Source of the DNA: Thermoplasmata archaeon
GTDB lineage: Archaea > Thermoplasmatota > Thermoplasmata > Lutacidiplasmatales > UBA184
Direction: 5' to 3'
Assembly: GCA_035945735.1 (NCBI GenBank)
Contig: DASYZY010000123.1
Location: 1-44,540 of the forward strand
Length of the DNA stretch: 44,540 nucleotides
Position numbers and translations under genes: made by a program. Every line of letters begins with the position of its first letter. The stretch's first letter is position 1. The notes below the pieces were generated by a model. That model did not search any database. It saw only the letters and a program-made list of their open reading frames with translations, and was not told the origin of the DNA. Positions 10,251 to 28,854 of this stretch are shown piece after piece.

Positions 10251-10322
10251 CTGGTGACTCGGATCTGCCTTTGCTTGGATCGGAGCTCGAAGTGGCGAAT
10301 CTACACGCGGGTAGCGCCGATG

Positions 10323-10339
10323 GGAGTGCGGGCACCGGG
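10323..10339. repeat. attL core: 17-bp perfect direct repeat GGAGTGCGGGCACCGGG
   Basis: Identical to 28777-28793, which covers the 3'-terminal 13 nt of tRNA-Gly plus 4 nt. Extended similarity is 30/36 over 10311-10346 versus 28765-28800. Confidence 0.8.
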
Positions 10340-10408
10340 GTTCGAGGACTGAACCTCGGGAGCCTTGCCTACCTCGACCCCGGTTTGCTACTTCGCGAGG
10401 GGCCTTGA

Positions 10409-10609
10409 GTGGCAGCCGCGGCTCGCCTCGTTTCCGCGAGCTTCGGCGGCTCGGGTGATCTCAAGGAGGCGCTCCGCTCCGAGTGGCTCAGCCGCCACCG
10501 TATCCCCGAGGACTTCGAGCTGCTCTGGAACCTCTACTGGCGCGAGCTTGGCCCGCTCGCCGCTCTTCCCGCTTCGATCCACGATCTTGAGGAGGTGCTC
10601 GTCCGCTGA
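10409..10609 (+). CDS. hypothetical small protein
   Basis: 66-aa ORF with a GTG start and protein-like composition (DLKEALRSEWLSRHRIPEDFELLWNLYWREL). It is the first ORF inside attL. Confidence 0.4.
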   Translation: MAAAARLVSASFGGSGDLKEALRSEWLSRHRIPEDFELLWNLYWRELGPLAALPASIHDLEEVLVR

Positions 10610-10647
10610 TCGGCGTTCACCGACTCCGCGAGATCTCCCCGCCTCCA

Positions 10648-10995
10648 GTGATCACGCTCGAGTTCCGGTTCTGGCGAGAGCTCAATCTGCAGCGGAGGAA
10701 ACCCTTCGGCTGCCCCGACTGCCGGCACACCTTCGCGACGACAACCGTGATCCCGCGACACCTGCGGAACGAGCATCCTCGATGGATCCCGTTCTTGAAC
10801 GCTCGGGAGGTGATGAAGAACCCTCGACCAACGCCTCGAGCTGAACTCTGGAAGGATCCCGAGTTCAGAGCCCGGAACGCAGCCGCCGTCCGGGCGACCC
10901 TCGACAAGCGTTGGAAGGATCCCGAGTTCAGAGCCCGGAACGCAGCCGCGCTCGAAGCGTGGTACAACCGCGGCCGAACTGGCGGTGCGAGTTGA
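10648..10995 (+). CDS. C2H2 zinc-finger protein with duplicated WKDPEFRARNAAA motif
   Basis: CPDCRHTFATTTVIPRHLRNEH fits C-x2-C-x12-H-x4-H. The C-terminal half contains two copies of a 13-aa motif encoded by a 38-bp perfect DNA repeat. Confidence 0.65.
   Translation: MITLEFRFWRELNLQRRKPFGCPDCRHTFATTTVIPRHLRNEHPRWIPFLNAREVMKNPRPTPRAELWKDPEFRARNAAAVRATLDKRWKDPEFRARNAAALEAWYNRGRTGGAS
10849..10949 (+). repeat. 38-bp perfect direct repeat (10849-10886 and 10912-10949), period 63 bp, intragenic
   Basis: TGGAAGGATCCCGAGTTCAGAGCCCGGAACGCAGCCGC occurs twice in frame within the C2H2 gene. Confidence 0.9.
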
Positions 10996-11390
10996 TCTCC
11001 TCGCGCCGCCCTATCTACCACTCCTCGACCACATCGAGGGGCGCGGCCGTTCTACCCGGTGCGGCCGTCGCCCCCGCTTTCTCTGAGCGCCTTGCGATCG
11101 AGGCTCGCGCGATCAGCGACGCTCTCAGCCGACTCACGGGCCGGCGCTCCCTCTCCCCCCGGATACATCGAGGCTCGGCGGGCGCCACGTCAGGGCGGGC
11201 AGAAGGGGGGGAGCGGCTCGTTCCGCCGTCTCTGGCTTCTGCTCCGCCGCCCGTCACCGCGACCTGCTCGCTCTGCCACGAGTTCATCTACGTCAACGAT
11301 CGGCTCGGGATCTCCTTCTGTCAGATCCACGGCCTCCACGCCCCGATCGTGTTCCTCCCCGTTGCTCAGCGGCGCCTTTCTGGGGTCTAA
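10992..11390 (+). CDS. hypothetical protein with C-terminal CxxC...CxxH zinc-ribbon-like motif (start uncertain)
   Basis: The TTG at 10992 overlaps the upstream stop (TTGA), matching the coupling style of this element. The C-terminal CSLCHEFIYVNDRLGISFCQIH looks protein-like. GC3 is lower than in neighbouring genes, so coding status is uncertain. Confidence 0.3.
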   Translation: MISSRRPIYHSSTTSRGAAVLPGAAVAPAFSERLAIEARAISDALSRLTGRRSLSPRIHRGSAGATSGRAEGGERLVPPSLASAPPPVTATCSLCHEFIYVNDRLGISFCQIHGLHAPIVFLPVAQRRLSGV

Positions 11391-11433
11391 CCTTGTCAGT
11401 TTTTCTCCAACCTGGTCCCCTTGCCGCTCCCGC

Positions 11434-11458
11434 CGTCCCGTCCCGTCCCGTCCCGTCC
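11434..11458. repeat. pentanucleotide microsatellite (CGTCC)x5
   Basis: Five perfect tandem units, followed by a degenerate unit (CGGGTCC). It lies in the intergenic region downstream of an oligo-T tract (TTTTT, 11400-11404). Confidence 0.9.
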
Positions 11459-11561
11459 CGGGTCCGACCGAACGTACGCACTCCCGCACTCCCCTGCCCT
11501 CCCGTCCCGACCGACGCGCGCGTAGAGCTCCATAGTCGGAGGCGCCCCGTCAGCTCCCGTC

Positions 11562-11721
11562 CAACCCGGGTTGAACAGGGGTCGCCCAACCCGGGTTGCA
11601 ACCCGGGTTCACGTCGAGAGGAGGCCTCGAATGCCCCCCGCTGAGGCGGTTCCAACCCGGGTTGACACCGGGTTGAGGGCGTCGATCGCGCACGGGCCGG
11701 AGAAGGACTGGGACCGGGTTG
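11562..11721. promoter_or_regulatory. array of the 12-bp palindrome CAACCCGGGTTG (3 perfect, one 11/12, two half sites): candidate operator or origin
   Basis: Perfect copies are at 11562-11573, 11587-11598 and 11653-11664. An 11/12 copy is at 11599-11610. Half sites ACCGGGTTG are at 11667-11675 and 11713-11721. The array straddles the start region of the RHH gene. Confidence 0.6.
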
Positions 11722-12182
11722 GGATGAACGTCACCCTCTCTGTCACAGTTCCGGCTGCGATGGTCCGCTGGGCCCGGGCCCACGGCATCGTCCTGAGCCG
11801 GGTCCTCCGCGACAGCGTCGAGCGCCTCCAGGGCGGAGCGAGCCTCGCTCGCACCCGCGAGGAACTCCAGACGGCCCGTGAGCGCGTCCTCCAGCTCGAG
11901 ACGTACGAGGCCCGTCTCCTCGAGGAGGCGAAGGCGGCCGACGACGCAAAGGCCCAGGAGAAAGCGCGGGAGAAGGCGATCCGCGAGCTCACCGCCGAGT
12001 TCGCCGCCGCGGAGGTCAGCCAGGGATCGTTCACGGTCCACCGGCCTTCCCTCGGCAACTCTCCGTCGAACCTCGCGTGGATCGAGCCTCGCGTAGAGAA
12101 GAACCCCGTCCTGCGACCTATGAAGGCGAGGGCGGTCCTCGATCTCGTTCTCACCGCCTGCTCGAAGTCGGAGGCAGCGTGA
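11631..12182 (+). CDS. ribbon-helix-helix (CopG/Arc-like) protein with C-terminal coiled coil
   Basis: VTLSVTVPAAMVRWARAHGIVLSRVLRDSVERL fits a beta-strand followed by two helices (RHH). The ATG at 11631 is preceded by GGAGG with 6-nt spacing. An alternative ATG at 11724 would put the RHH strand at the N-terminus. Confidence 0.65.
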   Translation: MPPAEAVPTRVDTGLRASIAHGPEKDWDRVGMNVTLSVTVPAAMVRWARAHGIVLSRVLRDSVERLQGGASLARTREELQTARERVLQLETYEARLLEEAKAADDAKAQEKAREKAIRELTAEFAAAEVSQGSFTVHRPSLGNSPSNLAWIEPRVEKNPVLRPMKARAVLDLVLTACSKSEAA

Positions 12183-12445
12183 GCGCCGAGGTCGACCTCG
12201 AGTCGCTAACCCGCCGTGAGCTCGAGAACCTCATGCTCACTGAGCACGGGGCGCTGACGCGGATCCTCGAGGCGGTCCGGATGTACTCCGAGCCGGGGTG
12301 GAAGGTTCGGCGGGAGGTCGAGCGGATCGTCAAAGAGGCGGCCGATCGGCGTCCGTTCGCCGTCGCGTTCCAGCGTTCGGCCGACGCCACGCTCTCCGAG
12401 CTCCGGTCGGACTCGAACGAGAGGCGGTGGAGGCAATGGCGGTGA
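12179..12445 (+). CDS. hypothetical protein
   Basis: The GTG at 12179 overlaps the upstream stop (GTGA). The 88-aa product has balanced composition (LESLTRRELENLMLTEHGALTRILEAVRMY). Confidence 0.5.
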   Translation: MSAEVDLESLTRRELENLMLTEHGALTRILEAVRMYSEPGWKVRREVERIVKEAADRRPFAVAFQRSADATLSELRSDSNERRWRQWR

Positions 12446-12909
12446 GGATCCTGGACGCCACCGCCGGCAACCGTGGGGTCTGGTTCGACAAGAACTACCG
12501 GGATGCGACGTTCATCGACATCAGGGCGAAGGGGGAGACCTCCGAGCTGAAGCAGGACAACCTGGTCCTCGACTGTCGGAACACCCGATTCCCAGACGGG
12601 TCGTTCGACTTGGTGATCTTCGACCCCCCGCACATAGCAATCGGACCGAACGCCGAAATGGCGAAGCGGTACGGGTCGCTGCCCAATCCACCGGGACCCG
12701 AACCTATGAGGTCTAACGGCGGATATCCCTCTCTGGCCCGGTGCGACGTCGGCGAGTGCACATGGACGTACCGTGTGCCCGAGCGGCGGCCCCAGAGCCG
12801 AGCGAAGTCCGCGGTCTACATGCACCTCGCCAACCACCACGGTCTAAGAGGCCGGCTAAGGATGATCGCAGCCGATCGAATCTGCATGCGGCTCCAGGTG
12901 CCGGAGTGA
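12436..12909 (+). CDS. putative SAM-dependent (DNA) methyltransferase with DPPH motif and C-terminal C2H2-like finger
   Basis: ILDATAGNRGVW is motif-I-like. DLVIFDPPH is a motif-IV D/N-PP-Y/H type. The tail CDVGEC...MHLANHH is finger-like. No adjacent restriction endonuclease was recognised. Confidence 0.45.
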   Translation: MAVRILDATAGNRGVWFDKNYRDATFIDIRAKGETSELKQDNLVLDCRNTRFPDGSFDLVIFDPPHIAIGPNAEMAKRYGSLPNPPGPEPMRSNGGYPSLARCDVGECTWTYRVPERRPQSRAKSAVYMHLANHHGLRGRLRMIAADRICMRLQVPE

Positions 12910-13616
12910 ACGACCCCGTCGCCCTCTACCTGCGCGTTTCCACCGAGGACCAGGATCTCGGCGCCCAGGAGCGTGAGCTGCGGGAGTACGCCGGCCGCCG
13001 CGGCTGGACTGTCGAAGCGGTCTTTGCCGAGAAGGCGTCGGCGACGGGCAAGATCGAGCGCGAGGCGTGGGAGCAGCTGAGGAAGGAGGCATGCCTTCCG
13101 ACGACCCGCAGGTTTGAGCATGTCCTCGTCTGGGCACTCGACCGCTGGAGCCGGGACCGATCGTTCGTGAAGGCGATCGGCTCGATAGAGGAGCTCGAGC
13201 TCCTAGGCGTGGGTTTCCACAGTTTCAGGGAGCCGACGCTCGACTCCGGCGAGGATGGGAGCTCGAACCTAGCTCGGGACCTCCTCCGCGGGATCCTTCC
13301 AACGATCGCAGCGTTCGAGGCGCAGCGGCGCTCGGACCGCACGCGGGTCGCGATGCAGGAGATCAAGCAGGGTCGCCGGCGGACTCGCTCGGGGCGGCCC
13401 GTGGGCCGGCCGCGGCGCGTGACGCCTGAACTCGAACAGAAGGTGCGCGAGCTGCGCGCCCGGGGGCTGAAGTGGCGCGAGATCGCCGTTCGGCTCCGAA
13501 TCCCCTCCGGAACCGCTCGGAAGGTGCGGCTGCGGGAAACTGCTCGTGCGGAAAAAGGTCAGGGCGGGTTTGCCGCACCTTCGGCGGCATCCTTGGACCT
13601 GCCTACCGTCGGCTAA
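12906..13616 (+). CDS. small serine recombinase (resolvase/invertase family) with C-terminal HTH
   Basis: The GTG at 12906 overlaps the upstream stop. ALYLRVSTEDQDLGAQERELREYA contains the catalytic Ser motif (Y-x-R-V-S-T-x-x-Q). VWALDRWSRD follows, and the C-terminal HTH is VRELRARGLKWREIAVRLRIPSGTARKV. Confidence 0.9.
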   Translation: MNDPVALYLRVSTEDQDLGAQERELREYAGRRGWTVEAVFAEKASATGKIEREAWEQLRKEACLPTTRRFEHVLVWALDRWSRDRSFVKAIGSIEELELLGVGFHSFREPTLDSGEDGSSNLARDLLRGILPTIAAFEAQRRSDRTRVAMQEIKQGRRRTRSGRPVGRPRRVTPELEQKVRELRARGLKWREIAVRLRIPSGTARKVRLRETARAEKGQGGFAAPSAASLDLPTVG

Positions 13617-13631
13617 GGAACCGTTCCGCAC

Positions 13632-15227
13632 ATGCGCGCGCTCTGGATCCTGGTCGGGGTCCTCCTGACCGGGCCGATACTCACATCGCCCCAGGCCGCA
13701 GCAGCCCACCCGGCAGCCGGTGACTCGATTACGATCGGCTCGACCCTCTACACGCTCAACCTGAGCACATTCTGGGGTGCGGTCGGCCAGTTCGGGGCTA
13801 ACCCGTCGACGCCCGCGCTGCGCGCCGATACGAACGCCACCCCGCTCCAGGTCTTCCGCTTCGCCGACGGCATGGACTCGACGAACCTGAGCGCGAACGA
13901 GACCTGGACGCCGGGGGCGAGCAGCGCGACGGCCGGCACTATCGGGATCAACGTCCTCACCGACTGGCAGTTTTGCGAGGAGCTCCGCTCCCCGTGCACC
14001 TTTGTCTTCCAGCTGCCCGGCGAGACCGACTCGGCGGGCGACGTGCGCTCCGCGCTTCAGTTCTTGCAGATCCACGACATCGAGCCCGCGTACTACTCCA
14101 TCGGAAACGAGCCATCGCTCTGGAAGCACTGGGGTGAGGCCTGGTCGACGTGGGCCACATCCGACTCGTCGAAGCCGACGGGGCTGCAGTACGCCCAGGA
14201 GGTCCAGCAGCTGGTCCCTGTGATCCGCGCGATCGTCCCGGGTGCGAGGATCATCGGCCTCGAGGACGACCAGTGCTCGAATGACTCCTACGTGCAGCAG
14301 GTGGCGAAGATCAACGGACCTAACCTCTCGGCGATCGCGTGTCACTCATATTCGGCCAACTCCCAGGACGTCGCGGGCGCGGGGCTCCAGCAGTTCTACA
14401 ACGTCCTCACGTCGACAGGCGCGAACCCCGCCACGAACGTCCCGAAGGTCAGGGCTGGGATCAGGTTCGGCTGCGGCAGCTGCTCGCTGCCCGTCTGGAT
14501 CGACGAGGATAACGCGATCTCGGGCGCCGATCCCGCCCACTTCTCCCGCTACACGAGCTCCTACCCGGACTTCGTACTGACGGCTGGCGACCTGCTCGAC
14601 GCGATCGCGGTTGGCACTCCGCACGTCCTGTTCTTCCAGTATTGGGCTCCAAGCGGGTCGACCTACGGCATGGTGAATGGGTCGGGCCTCTACCTCCGGC
14701 CTACGTACTTTTGGTACTCCGCCTTCGCCGACCTGATTCCCTCGGGACCGGTGAGCGTGAATCAGACCTCGGTCGCGCCGTCGACGCAGCCGCTCGTGGC
14801 GCAGTTCCTCCAGAGCAACTCGACGAACTCAGTGGTGGTCGTGAACGGCAACGCGACGACGCCTGAGATCGTGACACTGCCGGTCTCGATGGAGGGAGCG
14901 TCTGGAGGGCGATCGGTCTACTGGGACAACAACACGCTCCAGCCATCGGTCATGAGCTGGACGGCTGCCCCACCTTCGCTCGTCTACATGCTCGGGCCCC
15001 AGTCGGTACTCCTGGTCGACAGCAGCCGCGCGCCTGCGATCGCTGGCACCGGCGGCTCGGGAGCGTCGCCCGCGCCCCCTTCGGGGACGGGCACTAACAG
15101 CTCGGGCGGGTTCCTCCTTCAGCCCGACGGCTCCTCAGCGATCCCTTGGACCTGGATCGGCGCGGGGGCCGGCCTGCTCGGCGTCGTGGCCCTGGCTGCC
15201 GTCTCCCGCCACCGGAGGCTGCGGTGA
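13632..15227 (+). CDS. secreted, C-terminally anchored glycoside-hydrolase-like protein (clan GH-A TIM barrel candidate)
   Basis: The signal peptide is MRALWILVGVLLTGPILTSPQAAAA. YYSIGNEPSLW carries the NEP acid/base motif of clan GH-A, and LPVWIDEDNA is a candidate nucleophile strand. There are many N-x-S/T sequons. The C-terminal TM WIGAGAGLLGVVALAAV is followed by SRHRRLR. Confidence 0.5.
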   Translation: MRALWILVGVLLTGPILTSPQAAAAHPAAGDSITIGSTLYTLNLSTFWGAVGQFGANPSTPALRADTNATPLQVFRFADGMDSTNLSANETWTPGASSATAGTIGINVLTDWQFCEELRSPCTFVFQLPGETDSAGDVRSALQFLQIHDIEPAYYSIGNEPSLWKHWGEAWSTWATSDSSKPTGLQYAQEVQQLVPVIRAIVPGARIIGLEDDQCSNDSYVQQVAKINGPNLSAIACHSYSANSQDVAGAGLQQFYNVLTSTGANPATNVPKVRAGIRFGCGSCSLPVWIDEDNAISGADPAHFSRYTSSYPDFVLTAGDLLDAIAVGTPHVLFFQYWAPSGSTYGMVNGSGLYLRPTYFWYSAFADLIPSGPVSVNQTSVAPSTQPLVAQFLQSNSTNSVVVVNGNATTPEIVTLPVSMEGASGGRSVYWDNNTLQPSVMSWTAAPPSLVYMLGPQSVLLVDSSRAPAIAGTGGSGASPAPPSGTGTNSSGGFLLQPDGSSAIPWTWIGAGAGLLGVVALAAVSRHRRLR

Positions 15228-15376
15228 CCGAGATACTGGAACTGTCCGGTCGCCAGCGCTGCCACGAGTGTCGGAAGGAGCTCCCGCTCGGTTACAGGGC
15301 GAAGAAGTGGCATCTCGCTGAGCACCGCCGGCACCGAAACCGAATTGGGGGGGTTCGGCCCTCTCCCGTTCGCTGA
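15224..15376 (+). CDS. small C2H2-like zinc-finger protein
   Basis: The GTG at 15224 overlaps the upstream stop (GTGA). CHECRKELPLGYRAKKWHLAEH fits C-x2-C-x13-H-x3-H. Confidence 0.4.
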   Translation: MTEILELSGRQRCHECRKELPLGYRAKKWHLAEHRRHRNRIGGVRPSPVR

Positions 15377-15424
15377 GGGCCGCGGCGCGGCCCTCGGTGC
15401 GACGCCCGGCCCTCGAGAGAGGGC

Positions 15425-16855: not shown

Positions 16856-16964
16856 CGCGGACCGAGCGAAACCTATCTGTGGGGGGTACGGCATAGTCCC
16901 GTCCGCTGAGGGCCTGACGCCCGGCCCTCAGCAAGCCGCGCCAGGTCCTCCGCGCAGGACGCGG

Positions 16965-18482: not shown

Positions 18483-18504
18483 GGGGGACGAGGGGGGTAG
18501 AAAC

Positions 18505-20434: not shown

Positions 20435-20436
20435 TC

Positions 20437-20778: not shown

Positions 20779-20810
20779 AGTTCGCCCTCGTCCTCCTGCT
20801 GCTCGCGGCC

Positions 20811-22559: not shown

Positions 22560-23071
22560 GCGACGGGGACATCCACCCCGAGATCGAACTCCCCCCGTGG
22601 GAGCGAGAGGACGTCTACAAGGTCCCGGTGGTCCGCGGGGGTCGTCCCGACCTCCCCGGCATCGAGCAGGAGCAGGAGGCGCTCCTCCGCCTGATCGGGA
22701 CCCTCCCGAAGGACCTCGCCTGGTGGCCGGGCCACGGGAACGCGCTCCAGGTCGCCTATGAGGTGCGCGCCCGGCTCCTCCCTCGGATCAACGTGATCAC
22801 CCTCGGCCGCTGGCAGGAAGACGCCTACATCTGGTTCTTCCTCCTCGGCCCGGGCCCGAAGGACTACCGCTGCGCCACGCTCTGCATCCCCCACCCCACC
22901 GACGCCGCGTGGCTCTCCGGGAAGATCCCGCGCGAGCTGCTCTACCGCGGGGAGCGGAACCGGAACCTCCTCTCGAAGCACGTCATGGAGGCGTCCGCCC
23001 GGGCGATGCGCGAGGAGCAGGCCCGCCACTGGGTCCTCGCCCCCGAGCTCTCCAGCGACCGGGACCGATGA
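22556..23071 (+). CDS. hypothetical protein
   Basis: The GTG at 22556 overlaps the upstream stop (GTGA). The 171-aa product has soluble-protein composition and no recognised motifs. Confidence 0.6.
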   Translation: MSDGDIHPEIELPPWEREDVYKVPVVRGGRPDLPGIEQEQEALLRLIGTLPKDLAWWPGHGNALQVAYEVRARLLPRINVITLGRWQEDAYIWFFLLGPGPKDYRCATLCIPHPTDAAWLSGKIPRELLYRGERNRNLLSKHVMEASARAMREEQARHWVLAPELSSDRDR

Positions 23072-23994
23072 GCCACAACCCGCTGTTCGACCCTTCTGGC
23101 CCCCGCTTCTCGCTCCTCTATCGTTCGAGGGGACCTGTCGACGAGGGCCCCACCCGGGCGGAGATCTGGAAGTTCTGGATCGGCCGATGGCGCGCGCGCC
23201 TGAAGGCCGGCCGCGACTTGGTGATCGTGATCGACGCGGACCGGACCGGGAGCCCCGACGGCGTCGACGCGGGGGCGACCCGGGCCGGCAAGTCGACGCT
23301 GGGCCTCGAGATCCTCCAGGAGCTCGACCCGACGTTCACCCCGGCGAAGGTCCGCAACCGCGTGGCGGGGAGCGGGCCGGACCTCGCGCGGTACGTAATC
23401 GGCTGCGAGCGGGGAAACGGCTTCCTCTATGACGAGGGGATGTGGGGCGCGCGCGGCCGCGACGCGATGTCGCCCGAGACCAAGATGGTCGGGGAGGTCC
23501 TCGGGACTCTCGCTTCGCGCGGCGCGATCGTGGTCTTCTGCTGCCACTCGATGCTGACCCTCGACCCGGAGGTGAAGGCCCTCGCGTCGTACCGACTCCT
23601 GGTCCGGCGGAGGGGCCTTGCCGAGGTGCATACTCCCACCGTGCAGCTCGACCTCGAGCGGCCCCGACTCCTCCCGTTCCGCCAGCATGAGATGTCGCCG
23701 ATCGAGTGGGCCCCTCTCCGCGGAAAGCTCTGGAACGCGTACACCGCCGCGAAGACCGAGATGCAGGACGAGCGGATCCGCCTCAAGCTGGAGGAGCAGC
23801 GCGTATACCAGGCTCGCCGCCTCGGCCAGCGGGTCGACAATCCTTCTTCTGAGGGCGCGACCGCCGGCGGACCCGTAGTAAGGGGCGCGCGCGCGCCCGC
23901 TTGGAAGTGCTCGAAGTGCGGCTCGGCGTGGGGGCGGCGCTCCGACCGCGATCGCCACGAGGCGCGCTGCTCGGCGACGACGGGGTTCGGCTGA
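23068..23994 (+). CDS. small P-loop NTPase with C-terminal C2HC zinc finger
   Basis: The ATG at 23068 overlaps the upstream stop (ATGA). Walker A is GATRAGKST and Walker B is GFLYDEG. The C-terminal finger is CSKCGSAWGRRSDRDRHEARC. Confidence 0.75.
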   Translation: MSHNPLFDPSGPRFSLLYRSRGPVDEGPTRAEIWKFWIGRWRARLKAGRDLVIVIDADRTGSPDGVDAGATRAGKSTLGLEILQELDPTFTPAKVRNRVAGSGPDLARYVIGCERGNGFLYDEGMWGARGRDAMSPETKMVGEVLGTLASRGAIVVFCCHSMLTLDPEVKALASYRLLVRRRGLAEVHTPTVQLDLERPRLLPFRQHEMSPIEWAPLRGKLWNAYTAAKTEMQDERIRLKLEEQRVYQARRLGQRVDNPSSEGATAGGPVVRGARAPAWKCSKCGSAWGRRSDRDRHEARCSATTGFG

Positions 23995-24075
23995 CGGCCG
24001 CCCCTAAGACCGTCCGACGCTGTTTCGGCAACCCTCCCCGTCGGTTCAAAGAGCGGGGGCCGAGGTCCGCACCGC

Positions 24076-24309
24076 ATGAACCGATTCGACCTGCAGTTCT
24101 GGGAGGGCGCCCGGGAATCGGCGCTCGCGATCTACGACTTCGTGAAAGGCCGCCCCGACGTACCCCTCGAGGTGAGAGAGTTCGTCCTCAGGGTCCTCGT
24201 CAGCGCCGGCGAGAAGAAGAACCGAGACTTCAGAGAGTCCATCGGCGCTGAAGTCAGCGCCGCCCGGGAGAAGGCCTGGTCCGCTGTGACTCCGGCGGTC
24301 AGGCGTTAA
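24076..24309 (+). CDS. hypothetical small protein
   Basis: 77-aa ORF with balanced composition. Its stop overlaps the stop of the convergent minus-strand gene. Confidence 0.45.
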   Translation: MNRFDLQFWEGARESALAIYDFVKGRPDVPLEVREFVLRVLVSAGEKKNRDFRESIGAEVSAAREKAWSAVTPAVRR

Positions 24310-24647
24310 TCGAACTGCCTAAGGACGCTCCTCGCGAGGAGGAAGGCCGACGCCGAGAGGGCGAGCAACGCGAAGAGGACGATCTCGAGCCCGATGATCG
24401 CCACCGACTCCGCCGCCGGTAGGTTGGACAGGACCGTGCCCGAGGTGTAGCACGACGTGGTCCCGTTGAAGTCGCTGCAGGTCGTGTACGGCTCGAGCAG
24501 AGCAGCCCCTACCGCTACTTGAGCTCCGATGAAGACCAGGAGGAGCGCGAGGCTCCGGAGCGCGTAAGCGCGTAGTCGGTCGCGGTGGGCCCGGGGCATT
24601 CGGTCCCAACGAGAGAGCAGGCCGCGGGAAGGTTGGTTCGGGATCAT
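24306..24647 (-). CDS. small 2-TM membrane protein with Cys-containing extracellular loop
   Basis: The internal ATG at 24647 overlaps the stop of the upstream RHH gene (ATGA on the minus strand). TM1 is LALLLVFIGAQVAVGAALL and TM2 is VAIIGLEIVLFALLALSASAFLL. Confidence 0.6.
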   Translation of the reverse strand: MIPNQPSRGLLSRWDRMPRAHRDRLRAYALRSLALLLVFIGAQVAVGAALLEPYTTCSDFNGTTSCYTSGTVLSNLPAAESVAIIGLEIVLFALLALSASAFLLARSVLRQFD

Positions 24648-24859
24648 TCCCGTCGACGGACCGCTCCCGGCGGCGCCCCAAGCGGGTGCTCCTTTTTCCA
24701 GCGCTCGATCTTCTCCTTCAGAGCCTCTCGGACGAACTCCACGCGGTCGAACCACCGTGGATCCGCCCTCATGATCTCGAGCATCTCGTCGTGGATCCTC
24801 CGAGGGATCGTGACCCCGACCCGCTCGTAGTCGGTCGTCGAGCGCTTTTTCCCGGGCAC
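24644..24859 (-). CDS. ribbon-helix-helix (CopG-family) DNA-binding protein
   Basis: RVGVTIPRRIHDEMLEIMRADPRWFDRVEFVREALKEKI fits the CopG/RHH pattern. The GTG start lies about 27 nt from a TATA-like element, consistent with a leaderless transcript. Confidence 0.8.
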   Translation of the reverse strand: MPGKKRSTTDYERVGVTIPRRIHDEMLEIMRADPRWFDRVEFVREALKEKIERWKKEHPLGAPPGAVRRRE

Positions 24860-24880
24860 CCACGGGCGACAACGGTCCGC

Positions 24881-24927
24881 CGATAAAGACTAAATACAGC
24901 GGTGATTATGGAATACTGTAATCACCC
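24881..24927. promoter_or_regulatory. divergent promoter with operator-like inverted repeat GGTGATTA-N10-TAATCACC
   Basis: The AT-rich ATAAAGACTAAATA (24883-24896) lies between divergent starts at 24859 (minus) and 24928 (plus). The 8-bp inverted-repeat arms are at 24901-24908 and 24919-24926, ending 1 nt before the plus-strand ATG. Confidence 0.6.
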
Positions 24928-25140
24928 ATGGTCCCGAAGGAACACCGAGGGTACGCCGCGACCGAGGGAGAAGGGAATGGGTCGGCCCAGAACACCACGA
25001 TTCGCCTCAGGCGCGAGACTGTCGAAGAGCTGCGCCCCCTCAAGCAGAAGGGGTTCGGCGCCGAGGAGACCTGGGACCACTTCATCCGACGGGTTACTGG
25101 CCTACCCGAACTCGAGCTCTCCGATGGGGTCCCCGCGTGA
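24928..25140 (+). CDS. COG1753/VapB-like putative antitoxin-type DNA-binding protein
   Basis: TTIRLRRETVEELRPLKQKGFGAEETWDHFIRRV matches the archaeal pattern 'tI.v.eet...L..lK...eSf.dvIrrl'. No PIN-domain partner follows. Confidence 0.5.
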   Translation: MVPKEHRGYAATEGEGNGSAQNTTIRLRRETVEELRPLKQKGFGAEETWDHFIRRVTGLPELELSDGVPA

Positions 25141-25466
25141 GCGCCGACCCCGAGCCCGGCGCGATCAGCACCTTCCTCGACATCTCGACGCACGAGACGA
25201 CCGAGGGAGGCCTGCATGTCTACTCTCTCGGGGAGAAGCTCGCCCGCAACCGAGCCGACCGGTCCCTCCGGCTCTCGGGGCTCGTTCTCTCGGTCAACTT
25301 CCTCCTCGTCTTCGTTGTTGGCGTCGCCACGCTCTACCTCGGGCTCCCGCCAGGGAACGAGAACTGGGGCGCGCTCTACAACCTCGCCCTCGGCGCAGCC
25401 GTGGGTTGGGCGGTCTCTGCCTGGGCCGCGTGGATGGTCTTCTGGCGCGGGAGGCCTGACGCGTGA
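25137..25466 (+). CDS. small 2-TM membrane protein
   Basis: GTGA overlap with the upstream gene. TM segments are LVLSVNFLLVFVVGVATLYLGL and LALGAAVGWAVSAWAAWMVFW. Confidence 0.55.
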   Translation: MSADPEPGAISTFLDISTHETTEGGLHVYSLGEKLARNRADRSLRLSGLVLSVNFLLVFVVGVATLYLGLPPGNENWGALYNLALGAAVGWAVSAWAAWMVFWRGRPDA

Positions 25467-25729
25467 GCGCAACGGCGACCCTCGACGATTGGATCCGTCC
25501 TGGAGAGGTCGTCCCTGAGATCCTCGAACTCGCGCGCAGCTCGGGCCCCGCCGGCTTCACCGTCGAAGACCTCCGCCTTCGCGGACTCTTCACCGCCAAC
25601 CTCGGCGCCCCTCTCGGACGTCTCTGCGCGCAGGGCTGGCTCCGGGTGATCGGTGACGAGCCCTCGAAGTTCCGCACCTCGAAGGGCCGCCACGTCCGCC
25701 GCTTCGCGATCGGACCGGAGGCCCCGTGA
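25463..25729 (+). CDS. small winged-helix-like protein, hypothetical
   Basis: GTGA overlap. 88 aa; FTVEDLRLRGLFTANLGAPLGRLCAQGWLRVIG resembles a wHTH recognition helix plus wing. Confidence 0.45.
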   Translation: MSATATLDDWIRPGEVVPEILELARSSGPAGFTVEDLRLRGLFTANLGAPLGRLCAQGWLRVIGDEPSKFRTSKGRHVRRFAIGPEAP

Positions 25730-25980
25730 ACCGCCCCGAGTGGATCCGGTTCAAGGAGATGGACCCGGAGTGGCAGGCGCGCGACGAGCTCGCGCGGCAG
25801 AAGTCGCGAGCAAAGGACGCAACCAAACGCCGGTACACCCGGTCGGAACGCTACCTCCGTCGAATGGCGGCGAACAAGCGGAGGAAGTACCGGGATGACC
25901 CGGTCTACCGCGAGCAGCAGAAGGCGCGCTGCCGCGAGTACGGCCGCCGTCTTCGAGCGACCCGCCGGAGCGCCCGATGA
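25726..25980 (+). CDS. small basic protein, hypothetical
   Basis: GTGA overlap. 84 aa, Lys/Arg-rich with a helical character (RQKSRAKDATKRRYTRSERYLRRMAANKRRKYR). Confidence 0.45.
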   Translation: MNRPEWIRFKEMDPEWQARDELARQKSRAKDATKRRYTRSERYLRRMAANKRRKYRDDPVYREQQKARCREYGRRLRATRRSAR

Positions 25981-26558
25981 GCGGCGCCGACTTCAAGGAC
26001 GGGAACGAGGTCCGAGATGAGGAGCGGGCGGCAATCGCCAAGCGGTTCCGATACCACGAGGACGCCTCGCCGAGCTCGGCGACCCTGGTGGTTCGTCCAG
26101 AGGTTGGCCTCGCAGAAGCCTGCGCCGTCTGGAACGATTTTTTGAAACTCCGTGACGAGATCCTCGCCGACCCGGCCTGCTTCGACATCCTCGACGGGCA
26201 CAGGGAGATGAACCGCACGGGCGCAACTCGCCTCGCACTCCCGTTCGGTCTCTCGATCCAGGAGCGCGACATCGAGGAGGGGCGAGTCGAACTCGCGGAT
26301 GAGGGCCAGTTCGACTACCGCTTCCGAGTTCGGGTCCGAGTCTCGAAGGGCGCGCGGTTCGTCGACAACATCGGCTCCTGCCGTCTCTCCGAGATCCCCG
26401 AGCGGACTCGCGACAAGGGCCACCCCGGAACGGTCGACTTCAAGCCGGGCCACGCGGTCCCGCTCTCCCAGCGCGAGCACTTCGCGCTGAGCAAGGCCTG
26501 GACGCGCGCGGTGAAGCGCGCGATCGCCGACATCCTGGGGGGTGTCGAAGCGGAGTGA
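25977..26558 (+). CDS. hypothetical protein, possible Rad52/Sak-type single-strand annealing protein
   Basis: ATGA overlap. The C-terminal REHFALSKAWTRAVKRAIADILGG resembles the conserved A..KRA...FG helix of Rad52-superfamily annealing proteins. This is a weak, motif-level call only. Confidence 0.3.
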   Translation: MSGADFKDGNEVRDEERAAIAKRFRYHEDASPSSATLVVRPEVGLAEACAVWNDFLKLRDEILADPACFDILDGHREMNRTGATRLALPFGLSIQERDIEEGRVELADEGQFDYRFRVRVRVSKGARFVDNIGSCRLSEIPERTRDKGHPGTVDFKPGHAVPLSQREHFALSKAWTRAVKRAIADILGGVEAE

Positions 26559-26561
26559 GTC

Positions 26562-26777
26562 TTGCCGGGCCGTCCGACGCTCCTTCGGACCCTCGCGTGC
26601 GCCCTGTTCGGCTGCGCCCCCGATCCGGCCACGGTCTGGGTCGCCTCGGACGGATGCCACGGGACCTTGTGCTCGCTCTGTCGCAGGTGCGGGCTGCCCA
26701 GTTGGACCCCACTCCCCGGCCAACTCGCCGGCGTCGTCGTGCAGCTGGACGCACCGCCGAGATCGTCTTCGAGGTGA
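26562..26777 (+). CDS. small Cys-rich (zinc-binding?) protein
   Basis: The TTG start lies 3 nt after the previous stop. There are 7 Cys in 71 aa, including CSLCRRC. The gene fills the gap exactly before the ASCH gene. Confidence 0.35.
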   Translation: MPGRPTLLRTLACALFGCAPDPATVWVASDGCHGTLCSLCRRCGLPSWTPLPGQLAGVVVQLDAPPRSSSR

Positions 26778-26784
26778 CCCGAGG

Positions 26785-27105
26785 ATGATCTTCACGCGGG
26801 CCAACATCGGGAAGATCTCAGCTGGTGAGAAGACCGAGACTCGGCGAATCTGGAAGAGGCCCCATGTCCGCGTCGGGGGCGTCTACAGAGTTCGGTCAAG
26901 TCGACGCCTCCCTGCGGACCCGGCTGACCCACAGATACGAGTGACCGACCTTCGCTCCGAACTCCTGGGCGAGATCACCGCAGAGGCCGTCCTTCGGGAA
27001 GGCTGCTCGAGCCTGGAGGAGTTCGTTCTCCAGTGGCAGGACCTCCACGGCGAGTGGGACCCGAAACAAGCGGTCTACATCGTCGATTTCGAGGTCGTAC
27101 CATGA
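26785..27105 (+). CDS. ASCH domain protein
   Basis: The N-terminal MIFTRANIGKISAGEKTETRR matches the G-x-K-T-x-E-x-R ASCH motif. The C-terminal part is EAVLREGCSSLEEFVLQWQDLHG. 106 aa. Confidence 0.6.
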   Translation: MIFTRANIGKISAGEKTETRRIWKRPHVRVGGVYRVRSSRRLPADPADPQIRVTDLRSELLGEITAEAVLREGCSSLEEFVLQWQDLHGEWDPKQAVYIVDFEVVP

Positions 27106-27491
27106 CCGACCCGTGGGACAACGAACTCGCCGAGTACGAGGCTGCTCGAGTCGCATTCGAGGCGAAGCACAAGCAGGAAGGCGCGGTCTTCTCCCGGGCA
27201 ACCGCCGTCGCGAAGGCCGACGCCGCGACAGCCTCGACGCGGATCGAGGCCGAGTACTCGAACAAGGTCCGCGAAGCGAAGTCGGAACTCGCCGCGACCG
27301 CCCGTCGAGTGAAGGCTCAACTCGCCGACTTCCGGCTCACACGCGACGCGCTGCTACGGGCGGAGTCTCGGAAGCTGGACGGGCTGCTCGCACCAGCGAG
27401 GCAGGCCAGGTCGATGGCGCTGACGGACCTTCGCAAGGCCAAGGACGAGGCCTGGGCCCGTTACAAAGCGAAGAGGTGGCCCGAGTCGTGA
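27102..27491 (+). CDS. coiled-coil protein, hypothetical
   Basis: ATGA overlap. 129 aa, Ala/Lys/Glu-rich with a heptad-like helical sequence. Confidence 0.5.
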   Translation: MTDPWDNELAEYEAARVAFEAKHKQEGAVFSRATAVAKADAATASTRIEAEYSNKVREAKSELAATARRVKAQLADFRLTRDALLRAESRKLDGLLAPARQARSMALTDLRKAKDEAWARYKAKRWPES

Positions 27492-27691
27492 TCAGCGACG
27501 TCCCTCGTCCAGCCCCCGAGCGCTGGGACCGACCTTCGGTCGAGACCCGGCGCGCATCCGACCCTTGCGGCGTCTGCGGATTCCCGATCGCCGACTCCCA
27601 GGAGGCTCTCAGCGTGCCCCACGTCGGCGGTCCCGACTCCTGGATTCACAAGGTCTGCCCGAAGGTCTCCTGCACGGGGGTCGCACGGTGA
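27488..27691 (+). CDS. small zinc-ribbon-like protein
   Basis: GTGA overlap. The motif is CGVCGFPIADSQ...HKVCPKVSC (CxxC...CxxxxC). Confidence 0.4.
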   Translation: MISDVPRPAPERWDRPSVETRRASDPCGVCGFPIADSQEALSVPHVGGPDSWIHKVCPKVSCTGVAR

Positions 27692-27846
27692 AGGCGCTCC
27701 AGGCTCATTTCTCGACGGCGCACGGCTACTGGCGCTTCAAAATCCTCAAGCAAACACAGCCGGTCGAACGGACCGATAGAAGGGCGCGCTGGCGCAGGAA
27801 GGTGAGGAGGGCAACCGTCCGTTCCGGACCCTCCGATTCCGCGTGA
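27688..27846 (+). CDS. very small basic ORF, hypothetical
   Basis: GTGA overlaps at both ends link it to the upstream gene and the integrase. 52 aa with no motifs. Confidence 0.3.
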   Translation: MKALQAHFSTAHGYWRFKILKQTQPVERTDRRARWRRKVRRATVRSGPSDSA

Positions 27847-28799
27847 CGATCGACTTTGCCCGCTACCGCTCCTGGTGCCTCGCCCAGGGCCACAGCCTAC
27901 GGACCGTCCAGAAGTCGGTCCGCTACCTCGTCCACTTCGCCGAGGACAAGGGGCTGGGGCTCGCGCCCGAGCTGCTCAACGAGGACGCGGTGATCGAGTT
28001 CGTCGCGCGCTGCCGTGAGCGAGGCACCCACCCGAAGACCCTGAACAACTACGTCCGCGAGCTCAACCTCTGGAGCCGGTTCAACCACCTCGGCTGGAAG
28101 CTGTCCTACTTCCGCCGCCACGCCCCGGTCCTGATGGATCTCCTCGGGCCCGACGACGAGGACCGTTTGCGGGCCGTTCGATTTGTCGATCCCGCGGTCA
28201 ACTCGAGGAACCGCGCGATGCTACTCCTGAGCCTCGACCAGGGGCCCCGCCGCGACGAGATGCTCCAGATGAAGCTCTCCGACCTGGTCGACACTCCGGC
28301 GGGCGGGAAGGGCGTCCTAGTGCGCCGCGGGAAGGGTGACCGCCCGCGCCTGCTCTACCTCGCCCCCGAGACGTGGCGCGAGATCTCCAGCTACGTCGAG
28401 ACCTACCGCATCCGATCGGACGCTTCAGCGCTGTTCACCGCGCGACGCGGCCCGGTCTCGTACGGCATGATGGGGAAGCTCGCGAAGGACATCGGCCGCG
28501 CCGCCGGCGTCCCGAACTTCAGTTGGCACCGCGGGCGCCACCGGATGATCGACGCGATGCTCGATCGAGGGGTCTCGCTCCCGGCAATCCAGGAGGTCGC
28601 GGGCCACTCGAAGGCCGAGACGACCGTCGCCTACGCGAGCCGCCGCGCGCTCAGGTCGCTGACCGAGCGCGAGGTACGATACTTCCAAAAGCGCCGTTTT
28701 GAGCCGATCCAGCCACGAGCCCCCGTCGAGCCGGGCGGGGACGAAGTGGCAAATGTATCCGCGAGTAGCTCGGATAGGAGTGCGGGCACCGGGATTTGA
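27843..28799 (+). CDS. int: tyrosine recombinase / integrase (XerC/D-phage integrase family)
   Basis: It has an N-terminal SAM-like core-binding domain. Catalytic-region motifs are GPRRDEML (Arg), HRGRHRMID (H-x-x-R) and GHSKAETTVAYA (His...Tyr). The last 19 nt overlap the tRNA-Gly gene. Confidence 0.9.
   Translation: MTIDFARYRSWCLAQGHSLRTVQKSVRYLVHFAEDKGLGLAPELLNEDAVIEFVARCRERGTHPKTLNNYVRELNLWSRFNHLGWKLSYFRRHAPVLMDLLGPDDEDRLRAVRFVDPAVNSRNRAMLLLSLDQGPRRDEMLQMKLSDLVDTPAGGKGVLVRRGKGDRPRLLYLAPETWREISSYVETYRIRSDASALFTARRGPVSYGMMGKLAKDIGRAAGVPNFSWHRGRHRMIDAMLDRGVSLPAIQEVAGHSKAETTVAYASRRALRSLTEREVRYFQKRRFEPIQPRAPVEPGGDEVANVSASSSDRSAGTGI
28777..28793. repeat. attR core: 17-bp perfect direct repeat GGAGTGCGGGCACCGGG
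   Basis: Identical to 10323-10339. It spans the tRNA-Gly discriminator, the 3' acceptor strand and the 3' T-stem strand, plus 4 nt downstream. Confidence 0.8.
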
Positions 28800-28854
28800 A
28801 CCCGAGTTATAGGCTTGGCAAGCCTATGTGATAACCAGACTACACTATGCCCGC
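28781..28854 (-). tRNA. tRNA-Gly: tRNA-Gly (anticodon GCC), 74 nt, no encoded CCA
   Basis: Manual cloverleaf of the reverse complement. Acceptor: GCGGGCA/UGCCCGC. D arm: GUGU...UCAC with G18G19. Anticodon stem: UAGGC/GCCUA with loop UUGCCAA. T arm: UCGGG-UUCAAAU-CCCGG. Discriminator: A. Confidence 0.92.

Follow-up and report, generated by a model that had tools for sequence, protein, structure and literature searches.

A candidate provirus of a new archaeal virus family at the tRNA-Gly(GCC) gene of a soil Thermoplasmata archaeon

Described tRNA-targeting systems and the present locus

Archaeal integrative elements that target tRNA genes and have non-split integrases include the pNOB8-type and SNJ2-type elements. 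Their tyrosine recombinase integrates at the tRNA 3' end with duplication of the 3' segment, and the integrase is potentially functional when integrated (see PMC5861418). SSV-type integrases are split into two fragments on integration (PMC4158269, PMC7253208). Aeropyrum pernix ovoid virus 1 (APOV1, Guttaviridae) is enveloped and has a small circular dsDNA genome that is tRNA-integrated; besides a tyrosine integrase and a glycoside hydrolase, it encodes a DnaA-like ATPase (PMC5882108). The pleolipovirus-like AvPV1 is an approximately 18-kb provirus (17.9 kb) in tRNA-Gly; it has an att repeat, a neighbouring tyrosine integrase and spike glycoproteins (two copies), after which come small membrane proteins and, further downstream, an NTPase. 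In this group the morphogenetic block is conserved and the replication genes are exchangeable (PMC10919331).

We analysed a 44,540-nt stretch of DNA from a Thermoplasmata archaeon (contig DASYZY010000123.1, here called the window), in which a unit of 18,454 bp (10323-28793) is almost certainly an integrated tRNA-targeting mobile element. It resembles AvPV1 in all the respects named above, but has no detectable VP4, VP3 or ORF6 homology, an NTPase of the phrog_5484 instead of the phrog_1979 lineage, extra core genes (a 582-aa membrane protein, a 171-aa protein and a serine recombinase) and a soil Thermoplasmata archaeon as host. The features given for pNOB8-/SNJ2-type elements are shared as well; the difference is that the integrase stop region and the core overlap, which makes the integrase protein differ between the two states. 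As in SSV1 (Fuselloviridae), the att site lies within the integrase ORF and integration therefore alters the integrase gene, although, unlike in SSV-type integrases, the exchange is confined to a 21-residue C-terminal tail and leaves the catalytic domain whole. The NTPase falls in the B251 AAA+ family of SSV1 through intermediates and positional orthologs; it differs by a C-terminal C2H2 finger, and no VP1/VP3-type capsid protein was found in the element. With APOV1 the element shares tRNA integration, a tyrosine integrase and a DnaA-like ATPase (orf19-247 of APOV1, same PHROG), but no other gene at the HMM level, and the integrase of APOV1 is of the SSV type while the virus infects a hyperthermophilic crenarchaeon.

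Attachment site, integrase and host flanks

The 17-bp perfect direct repeat reported in the initial annotation, GGAGTGCGGGCACCGGG, was confirmed at 10323-10339 and 28777-28793 (both + strand). These are the only copies in the window, with no third at two mismatches or fewer, and two matches were seen in 0 of 100 shuffles. The left copy (attL core) is the displaced copy of the tRNA-Gly 3' end, while the right copy (attR core) is the functional one and, read from the sequence, consists of CCCGG, TGCCCGC and A (T-stem, acceptor 3' strand and discriminator; 13 nt) with a CTCC trailer, just as had been proposed. The target, tRNA-Gly(GCC), is intact on the - strand (28780-28854 by ARAGORN, 28781-28854 by Rfam, with 67.1 bits against a gathering score of 29). 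ARAGORN also called a 96-nt tRNA-Pro(CGG) at 22647-22742, which lies inside coding sequence and has no Rfam support.

The imperfect similarity around the repeats is exactly 30/36 (10311-10346 versus 28765-28800), as first counted, and its true extent is longer (48/58, 10288-10345 versus 28742-28799). It had been explained by a longer tRNA-like segment in attP, but the leftward part matches the integrase 3' end instead: the 35 nt left of the core (10288-10322, + strand, just outside attL) are identical to 28742-28776 at 27 positions, and at least 26/35 was reached by 0 of 200,000 random 35-mer pairs from the window. This remnant of the last ~12-16 codons of an integrase gene resembles the integrase 3' end more closely than it does the DNA flanking the tRNA in two relatives (L003 and L004), and is likely a trace of a previous, related element at this site.

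The gene at 27843-28799 (+) encodes a tyrosine integrase, as originally identified (PF00589, E 7e-16; best NCBIfam match archaeal XerA, 1e-22, below cutoff). Its adjacency to the repeat holds too, but the gene does not simply abut it, since the ORF reads through the att core (its last 8 codons) and stops inside the tRNA gene; it ends ...SAGTGI*, and the TGA stop (28797-28799) comes from the tRNA T-loop complement (ATT TGA). In the excised circle, by junction reconstruction, the ORF would continue into the opposite element end and gain a 21-residue tail, VRGLNLGSLAYLDPGLLLREGP and then a stop, from the P' arm (10340-10408, +). Since the integrase gene carries the att core within its 3' end, integration swaps this conserved tail for a stop supplied by the tRNA. 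The tail is kept in relatives: those of L055 (actual, GHGGIQPRGAGSLSSPGLNAF), L054 (reconstructed, GHGGIQSPGFGLLSPPELNPY) and the window (GVRGLNLGSLAYLDPGL) are homologous. L055 is assembled in the unintegrated, attP-joined gene order, with PrimPol, three small ORFs and the integrase contiguous, while in the integrated L054 these are at opposite ends. L054 itself sits in tRNA-Ala(CGC) with an 18/19 repeat, the copies being 19.5 kb apart, and its integrase (...GHGGI*) likewise ends inside the tRNA.

For comparison, 48 related Thermoplasmata genomes that keep the tRNA-Gly-TrmI neighbourhood were used. All 48 lack the 18,454 bp that separate the two repeat copies, and the element genes g11-g30 (11673-28799) have no homolog in 48/48 of these loci. 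The empty site proposed as a check was found in the closest genome, L003, where one flanking gene, the homolog of window gene 3571-4824, ends 80 bp from the tRNA and the other lies 2.6 kb from it. In L028 this homolog stops ~2.0 kb short of the tRNA and in L031 ~5.2 kb short, and TrmI follows 0.3-0.5 kb further on; in the window the same two genes are separated by 24 kb. The claim that housekeeping genes resume immediately outside is firm only on the right, with TrmI, because the left flank (ArsR, SRPBCC, DUF1801, a PKD/Kelch surface protein and ORF 9210-10250) shows no synteny with the nearest relatives. Window 10920-28810 recurs in an assembly made independently (Logan SRR12347822). Neither the circular attP junction that had been suggested nor an empty-site sequence was found for this very strain.

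Gene content and the element family

The accessory genes that had been described between the repeats were recovered, namely a serine recombinase, zinc-finger and RHH-like ORFs, an ASCH protein, glycoproteins that are secreted or membrane-bound and form a block, and a P-loop NTPase. At the left end, a small basic zinc-finger protein (10648-10995, +; CPDC...HLRNEH in the translation) has an internal KDPEFRARNAAA duplication. A 64%-identical homolog lies immediately downstream of the L053 integrase, and the DNA directly after that integrase is 68.6% identical to window 10537-10949. The non-coding control region at 11390-11672, with (CCGTC)x5.6 and 4-5 palindromes CAACCCGGGTTG, may be operator- or origin-like. 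It is followed by a hypothetical coiled-coil protein (11673-12182, +; codon-usage gene call, possible start 11571) without a match in Pfam or NCBIfam, a hypothetical 88-aa protein (12179-12445, +; gene call), a hypothetical 160-aa protein (12427-12909, +) whose translation has DxxAGxG and FDPPH motifs and is methyltransferase-like by eye only, with no family match, and a serine recombinase of the resolvase/invertase type (12906-13616, +; PF00239, E 3.1e-23), with homologs of 38-70% identity in seven of eight loci (L051, L052, L054-L056, L063 and L064).

The next block starts with a secreted glycoprotein with a C-terminal membrane anchor and 12 NxS/T sequons (13632-15227, +); it has no sequence match in Pfam, PHROG or PDB, and its domain reappears in relatives fused to fn3 or Kelch domains. 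Glycosidase activity, guessed from an NEP motif, was unsupported in the Pfam and PDB sequence searches. Two spike-like type-I membrane glycoproteins are paralogs (29% identity, E 2e-35): 15425-16855 (+, 11 sequons) and 16965-18482 (+, 10 sequons), the latter a family core gene (8 homologs, all from metagenomes or Thermoplasmata MAGs; 36-45% identity) with a signal peptide, a beta-rich ectodomain and a C-terminal anchor, the AF2 model of which is all-beta with weak jelly-roll/CBM-like matches, although the model is weak (pLDDT 61). Four small polytopic membrane proteins are predicted from TM segments (18505-18999, 19025-19366, 19376-20008 and 20027-20434, all +), the last three being conserved in the family. 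The 582-aa core protein (20811-22559, +) has a signal peptide, a glycosylated ectodomain, 3 TM helices and a highly conserved cytoplasmic domain of ~300 aa (alignment mean column identity 63%); its 12 homologs (50-57% identity) come only from metagenomes or MAGs, and no relatives were found in PDB or phages. The start of the 171-aa soluble core protein (22556-23071, +) overlaps the preceding stop by 4 nt.

The P-loop NTPase (23068-23994, +) has Walker A TRAGKST, Walker B LYDE and the zinc finger mentioned above, and its 18 homologs (49-73% identity) are all from metagenomes or Thermoplasmata MAGs. The profile of this tight family alone does not match B251, but 40/57 remote homologs match phrog_5484, which contains SSV1 B251 (5e-101) and APOV1 orf19-247 (2e-58), and the positional orthologs in L063 and L064 match it directly. 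The NTPase is distantly of the B251/"DnaA-like" kind, by a transitive link through these intermediates. In BFVD, the three best fold matches span the whole protein (prob 0.91-0.97; TM-score 0.39-0.48 by either normalisation).

To the right lies an accessory or regulatory block of small ORFs (24076-27691) with a conserved RHH-like ORF (24644-24859, -), an ASCH-domain protein (26785-27105), a zinc-ribbon ORF (27488-27691), two small membrane proteins, a 193-aa protein and a coiled-coil protein. In the copy of the element carried by the window, no gene could be recognised as a replication initiator.

Eight loci share a conserved gene order, with a core of spike-like glycoprotein, small membrane proteins, ~580-aa membrane protein, ~170-aa protein, NTPase, serine recombinase and integrase. 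Core ORFs are full length against their homologs (query coverage 85-100% among closer ones; for the NTPase it drops to 57-72% with two short or fragmentary entries). We are confident that the element is a member of a small, metagenome-only, new family. The relatives carry swappable PrimPol or ParB replication modules. A core of secreted and membrane proteins, including glycoproteins with 10-12 N-glycosylation sequons each, that stays conserved while replication modules vary is virus-like.

Viral or plasmid nature

The initial suggestion of an undescribed archaeal virus or plasmid type is in line with a module that has no match in Pfam, PHROGs, INPHARED, PLSDB or IMG/VR. Between the two we lean towards a virus, and on balance favour a temperate archaeal virus, non-tailed and membrane-enveloped, that belongs to an undescribed family and is present here as a provirus. 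Recombination of the att core with the tRNA-Gly(GCC) 3' end gave the 17-bp repeat and left the tRNA intact. In the proposed life cycle, the circle may replicate with host functions after excision, its multimers being resolved by the serine recombinase, and the RHH and zinc-finger proteins may control the switch of state together with the CAACCCGGGTTG palindromes. The particle would be built from the conserved block (two paralogous spike-like and a third glycoprotein, the four small membrane proteins, and the trio of 582-aa protein, 171-aa protein and B251-like NTPase, whose genes overlap and are probably coupled in translation), with the glycoproteins binding host surface glycans and a membrane-anchored NTPase complex handling the genome at the membrane.

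That the element is instead an integrative plasmid or a genomic island of non-viral nature seems to us less likely. With the same integrase/tRNA mechanism, its membrane/glycoprotein block would remodel the host surface or serve vesicle- or contact-dependent DNA transfer without virions. The ParB, PrimPol and resolvase genes of relatives are just as characteristic of archaeal plasmids, searches of the element detected neither a capsid nor any known virion protein, and relatives of the NTPase and the 582-aa protein are absent from IMG/VR. Kelch repeats are common to the left-flank host surface protein and an element protein of L064, so such proteins move between host and element, and B251-like ATPases, although virus-associated, also occur in uncharacterised integrated islands (PMC4158269). 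Against this, it is the glycoprotein/membrane/NTPase block that is most conserved while replication genes are swapped, which is the pattern of pleolipovirus-like viruses (PMC10919331); the NTPase lineage is common to fuselloviruses and a guttavirus; and neither a conjugation ATPase (VirB4/TraG-type, by Pfam) nor a PLSDB match was found.

We consider it improbable that the element belongs to the pleolipovirus assemblage (Pleolipoviridae, 'Thalassapleoviridae' and Methanomassiliicoccales proviruses) as a divergent member with unrecognised VP4-type fusogens as spikes, despite the architecture and size of AvPV1, VP4-like proviruses reported from another Thermoplasmatota order, and a weak match of the superfamily profile to betapleolipovirus NTPases (1e-4, in a small search space). 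The NTPase does not appear closely linked to pleolipovirus VP8, since hhalign against HRPV-1 VP8 gave a probability of 0.6% and 0/57 remote homologs matched phrog_1979, the pleolipovirus NTPase family. The spike profile does not match VP4, and the fusogen folds 6QGL and 6QGI are outside the Foldseek top 50 of the weak spike model. More widely, the spike-like and 582-aa profiles had no match in HRPV-1, HRPV-9, HRPV-10, His2, SSV1 or APOV1, and the small membrane proteins and the 171-aa protein remained below 2% hhalign probability against SSV1 VP1/VP3 and pleolipovirus VP3/ORF6/ORF7.

That there is no discrete element, only a chance repeat or an old, fixed and immobile island, is largely refuted: searches yielded no excision product for this exact strain and GC content is only modestly different (0.65-0.71 versus 0.69-0.75 in the flanks), but the repeat is statistically unexpected and coincides with the tRNA 3' end and the integrase stop, core ORFs are full length, and relatives occur in a different tRNA and in unintegrated form.

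An integrated element that is most likely the provirus of a new archaeal virus family is, taken as a whole, what we regard as the probable explanation. To our knowledge, almost no viruses of Thermoplasmata are known, and if this explanation is true, the locus would be the dormant genome of an undescribed enveloped virus in an uncultured soil Thermoplasmata archaeon.

The integration site and its surroundings

The 17-bp perfect direct repeat GGAGTGCGGGCACCGGG described in the initial annotation is present in exactly two copies in the window, at 10323-10339 (attL) and 28777-28793 (attR); no third copy occurs in the window at up to 2 mismatches, and two matches were seen in 0 of 100 shuffles. As was also stated there, the repeat consists of the 3'-terminal 13 nt of the tRNA plus a 4-nt trailer (CCCGG-TGCCCGC-A and CTCC on the tRNA strand). 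The tRNA-Gly(GCC) was located by ARAGORN at 28780-28854, minus strand, and scores 67 bits with the Rfam tRNA model, and no other RNA family was found in the window by Rfam. Direct repeats, one of them supplying the 3' end of a tRNA that is intact, are thus present, as in tRNA-integrating elements with a tyrosine integrase. ARAGORN also called a 96-nt tRNA-Pro(CGG) on the minus strand at 22647-22742, within the overlap of two coding genes; it falls below the Rfam tRNA threshold and is probably a spurious call within GC-rich coding DNA.

The 30/36 identity noted around the cores is exact, but the similarity reaches further, with 48/58 positions identical over 10288-10345 versus 28742-28799. It had been explained by a longer tRNA-like segment beside the core, whereas it instead matches the integrase gene end: the 35 nt directly left of attL are identical at 27 of 35 positions to the 35 nt left of attR, which are the integrase coding end. 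None of 200,000 random 35-mer pairs from the window reached 26/35, and comparable resemblance to this stretch is absent from the tRNA flanks of L003 and L004, two related Thermoplasmata host loci. On the simplest reading, the site would have been occupied earlier by a related element whose integrase gene tip remained in place, and the present element may then have inserted into the regenerated tRNA end. The 35-bp integrase-like scar is the sole surviving support for such an earlier occupant.

With the TrmI protein (29060-29809) as query, 48 loci were found among the GTDB representative genomes, nearly all from Thermoplasmata MAGs of soil, peat or sediment, and most of them have a minus-strand tRNA-Gly(GCC) immediately upstream of TrmI. 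When all window proteins were compared with these 48 loci by tBLASTn, the right-flank genes were recovered in order, and no homologs of the element genes g11-g30 (11673-28799) were detected at E<=1e-5. In the closest relative, L003, a membrane protein gene that is 79% DNA-identical to window 3571-4824 ends 80 bp from the tRNA-Gly 3' end, and in the host loci L028 and L031 the homolog of 3571-4824, tRNA-Gly and TrmI all lie within a few kb. The empty site that the initial annotation proposed to look for in relatives is thus seen in these three loci, which belong to other species rather than other strains and carry the flanking genes and tRNA-Gly without the element. Since the flank genes lie close together there without element genes, the 18.45 kb are an insertion relative to related genomes. 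In a limited search of genomes and metagenomes, the attP junction (28776, core, 10340) of the window's own element was not found. Sequence alone could hardly make the identification as a tRNA-targeting, integrated mobile element more secure.

The left flank is less tidy than had been assumed, with 4825-10322 missing in L003 and other cellular genes at this place in L004. In the window this stretch encodes ArsR, SRPBCC/AHSA1 and DUF1801 proteins, a Kelch and PKD surface protein and a 346-aa ORF. We rejected it as the body of an older element, as there is no third att copy and the L004 equivalent consists of Rieske and cytochrome b genes; PKD proteins left of tRNA-Gly in several relatives also count against it. 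On the other side of the tRNA, about 2.6 kb separate tRNA-Gly from TrmI in the two nearest relatives, L003 (1118-3710) and L004 (7302-10000, with a short-chain dehydrogenase), while the window has no such DNA, so both sides of the tRNA are rearrangement-prone. Elsewhere in the host DNA there are two paralog pairs unrelated to the element, 350-1387 with 40979-41959 (48-52% identity over about 300 aa) and 36468-37376 with 37428-38489 (32-43% over the C-terminal part).

An independent assembly of the same element, a Logan contig from SRR12347822, stops 17 nt beyond the core, inside the tRNA. Population heterogeneity was considered for this end; however, co-occurring relatives with the same tRNA and a different trailer base explain it equally well (the trailer base next to the tRNA in L003 differs from that of the window), and the contig end is therefore uninformative.

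Gene content and related elements

As the window has a G+C content of about 70%, raw ORF lists are noisy; genes were called with a codon-usage model trained on the window and cross-checked with independent gene calls on the identical public contig. The element starts on the left with a small zinc-finger ORF that contains a near-perfect internal duplication (KDPEFRARNAAA twice, 10880-10960). The Logan contig begins at window 10920, the contig of a related element (L053) terminates in a homologous repeat, and the duplication is a point at which short-read assemblies break. There follows the only sizeable non-coding stretch of the element, occupied by repeats at 11433-11460 and 11562-11672, where (CCGTC)x5.6 precedes four to five copies of the 12-bp palindrome CAACCCGGGTTG; it looks like a set of operator sites or an origin. 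Further to the right there are three small ORFs, a serine recombinase (PF00239, 3e-23) and three glycoproteins, all secreted, anchored at the C-terminus and bearing 10-12 NxS/T sequons apiece; two of them are paralogs with 29% identity. Four small polytopic membrane proteins come next. They are followed by a 582-aa protein (20811-22559), in which an ectodomain and a large cytoplasmic domain are accompanied by three TM helices, by a 171-aa protein (22556-23071) and by a 308-aa P-loop NTPase with a C2H2 finger (23068-23994); consecutive genes among these last three of the core share 4 nt. The stretch from there to the tyrosine integrase (27843-28799, plus strand) has some ten small ORFs, one of them RHH-like and another coding for an ASCH protein. 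The integrase has a tyrosine recombinase catalytic domain (PF00589, E 7.2e-16, residues 120-267) and shows the R, HxxR and Y motifs in its translation.

Except for the two recombinases and ASCH, no element gene had a match in Pfam, PHROGs or NCBIfam. The NTPase is annotated by NCBI as a hypothetical protein, and PDB sequence searches with the NTPase family, the 531-aa glycoprotein and the 582-aa family returned the C2H2 finger only, or nothing. The suggestion of an undescribed archaeal virus or plasmid type holds, as the structural genes are wholly unmatched and nothing corresponding to the element is present in INPHARED, PLSDB or IMG/VR; protein-profile scans of IMG/VR and JGI metagenome contigs likewise gave nothing.

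Relatives of the core proteins were found nevertheless, all in metagenomes or Thermoplasmata MAGs: 18 for the NTPase (49-73% identity), 12 for the 582-aa protein (50-57%) and 8 for the spike-like glycoprotein (16965-18482). Gene-order comparison of eight contigs of related elements shows a common order of spike-like glycoprotein, small membrane proteins, ~580-aa protein, ~170-aa protein and NTPase, often with an extra large secreted protein before the ~580-aa gene that has fn3, Kelch or the domain of the glycoprotein at window 13632-15227. Most of the eight also have the serine recombinase and the integrase. Replication and partition genes vary, with PrimPol and PriCT in L055, a PrimPol-like 841-aa protein in L054 and ParB in L052, L054, L056, L063 and L064; no PrimPol- or ParB-type gene was recognised in the window's copy. 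In the two sister elements L063 (12103-12990) and L064 (10693-11580) the NTPase, only 26-27% identical to that of the window, lies downstream of conserved ~580-aa and ~170-aa genes (41-52% identical); it has either been replaced or is evolving much faster than its partner genes. Membership of the element in a new family is well supported.

Two further observations were made on these contigs. L064 encodes at 2681-5743 a 1,020-aa secreted protein that joins Kelch repeats to the domain of window 13632-15227. Its Kelch repeats share 31% identity with the ones in the host surface protein on the left side of attL (6494-9064), a hint that domains may pass between surface proteins of the host and glycoproteins of the elements. 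In L051 (17071-17257), ARAGORN called adjacent tRNA-Ile(TAT) and tRNA-Arg(TCT), 88-90 nt each, within a 278-aa ORF at the contig end; these could be spurious or element-borne.

The integrase tail in integrated and free forms

Another integrated relative is L054, a whole contig of 19,787 bp in which tRNA-Ala(CGC) at 52-124 converges on the integrase (105-1121) and the 3' end of the tRNA is repeated, with 18/19 positions identical, at 19658-19676. As L054 sits in tRNA-Ala and the window's element in tRNA-Gly, the family targets different tRNAs with the same geometry. The integrase of L055 is 57% identical to that of L054 and is internal, with PrimPol and three small ORFs before it, and the gene order corresponds to L054 with its two ends joined. 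In L053, within about 110 bp after the integrase, there begins a stretch that has 68.6% DNA identity with the left end of the element in the window (10537-10949). L055 and L053 thus both show the unintegrated, attP-joined configuration.

The window's integrase ORF runs through the core and stops at ATT TGA (...SAGTGI*, 318 aa). When 28793 is joined to 10340 in a reconstruction, the stop is lost and the ORF extends to 339 aa, ending in ...SAGTGVRGLNLGSLAYLDPGLLLREGP. The L054 integrase ends in ...GHGGI* in its integrated state and in ...GHGGIQSPGFGLLSPPELNPYPGVA in its reconstructed form, and the actual integrase ORF of the unintegrated L055 ends in ...GHGGIQPRGAGSLSSPGLNAFLSMLQGELAKEL, with a tRNA-Ala-like core followed by a loop without a stop. 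This core was recognised by eye, Rfam finding no tRNA-like fragment near the integrase ends of L052 and L055. Both integrated integrases end in Gly-Ile-stop (window 28794-28799; L054 105-127) because ATT TGA complements the conserved tRNA T-loop UUCAAAU (TTCAAAT), while the attP versions carry a loop variant without a stop. Since the tails of the window, L054 and L055 are alike, the tail across attP is conserved at the protein level, which supports the proposed element boundaries and a circular intermediate. It also means that integrated and free forms encode different integrases, and the tail difference may bear on direction control of the enzyme. In the SSV type the integrase is split by integration, whereas here it stays intact through the catalytic Tyr and the tail alone changes; this integrase is intermediate between ordinary integrases and the 'suicidal' SSV type.

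Affinities and nature of the element

A full HMMER scan with the NTPase profile gave 451 remote relatives, and 40 of 57 sampled ones matched phrog_5484, the PHROG to which SSV1 B251 and APOV1 orf19-247 belong. This PHROG is matched directly by the positional-ortholog NTPases of L063 and L064, and a combined NTPase HMM recovered B251 at 1e-9 and APOV1 at 1e-8. The window NTPase alone did not match B251, and in a direct comparison of its family with B251 the Walker A motif alone aligned, so remote homologs were needed as intermediates. By this transitive route, the element has a B251-type DnaA-like ATPase, a feature of Fuselloviridae. For the fuselloviral VP1/VP3 major capsid protein, with its two hydrophobic helices, no counterpart was found there. 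APOV1, an enveloped ovoid virus integrated in a tRNA, encodes an integrase and a glycoside hydrolase in addition to its DnaA-like ATPase (PMC5882108); of its genes, orf19-247 for the ATPase was the only one matched in HMM searches, and this by the superfamily HMM. An AlphaFold model of the NTPase (pLDDT 73) had three full-length BFVD matches of 236-290 aa (A0A7L4XRS4, A0A0N9NKD7, G3CAX5), for which no names or literature mention were found, and it matched zinc fingers only in the PDB (Foldseek).

We lean towards a provirus, since the conserved core has glycoproteins and membrane proteins adjoining an NTPase whose lineage is associated with viruses, the replication modules can be exchanged and the layout parallels that of pleomorphic proviruses. 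A non-viral integrative plasmid or island, which we consider less likely, would be in keeping with the plasmid-like ParB, PrimPol and resolvase genes of relatives and with the fact that no known virion proteins were found in the element; on the other hand, neither a conjugation ATPase, a relaxase nor a recognised plasmid replication protein was found in the window's copy by Pfam, NCBIfam and PLSDB searches.

Within the viral reading, pleolipovirus membership was the leading idea after AvPV1, a close analogue of the element: a 17.9-kb provirus in tRNA-Gly of Archaeoglobus veneficus with 27-nt repeats, an adjacent integrase, two spike copies, VP3-like and ORF6-like proteins and an NTPase (PMC10919331). 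VP4-like proviruses are also reported in Methanomassiliicoccales (PMC10919331). Pleolipovirus membership was rejected, support having come neither from the NTPase family, nor from profile and fold searches with the spike-like protein, nor from comparing the small proteins. The NTPase family aligned to HRPV-1 VP8 with an hhalign probability of 0.6%, and phrog_1979, which four pleolipovirus NTPases match at 1e-93 to 1e-111, was matched by 0 of the 57 sampled remote homologs; betapleolipovirus NTPases reached only about 1e-4 with the combined HMM, and that with just a few hundred ORFs searched, a distant superfamily signal. The spike-like protein model (AlphaFold, 10 sequences, pLDDT 60.8) is beta-rich, with jelly-roll carbohydrate-binding (CBM) and MAM domains as best PDB matches (Foldseek, E about 5e-4), and at this pLDDT the V-shaped VP4 fusogen (6QGL, 6QGI) was not among its best 50. 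The spike-family HMM did not find VP4 in four pleolipoviruses, and spike and 582-aa family HMMs had no match in HRPV-1, HRPV-9, HRPV-10, His2, SSV1 or APOV1. The small membrane proteins and the 171-aa protein stayed below 2% in hhalign against VP3, ORF6, ORF7 and SSV1 VP1/VP3, a comparison in which short hydrophobic proteins perform poorly.

Returning to the provirus reading, we tentatively propose that mesophilic Thermoplasmata of soil and peat may host a new virus family, enveloped and non-tailed, of which these elements would be the first members. Their virion proteins would lack detectable relatives, and the link to fuselloviruses and guttaviruses would run through the B251-like NTPase alone; the integrase would toggle between a long-tailed free and a tRNA-terminated integrated form, as a built-in marker or regulator of the integration state.

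The element belongs with the tRNA-integrating archaeal proviruses and elements and opens no new category. Thermoplasmatota are abundant in soils, peat and sediments. A 2026 survey listed only 30 provirus regions across 5,041 Thermoplasmatota and 2,275 Nanobdellota genomes (PMC13573593); the host group is nearly virus-free in databases and Thermoplasmatota are almost blank on the virus map. Beside this host group and the unmatched structural genes, the interest lies in the integrase-tail switch, which is directly testable, the integrase/attP overlap being a simple case of a recombinase sequence that depends on the integration state. The family is defined, its att sites being known exactly, its core gene set being conserved and both configurations, integrated and free, being represented. 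Its 582-aa protein, NTPase and spike-like protein provide a marker set for finding such elements, and it is a concrete candidate for a new group of archaeal viruses.
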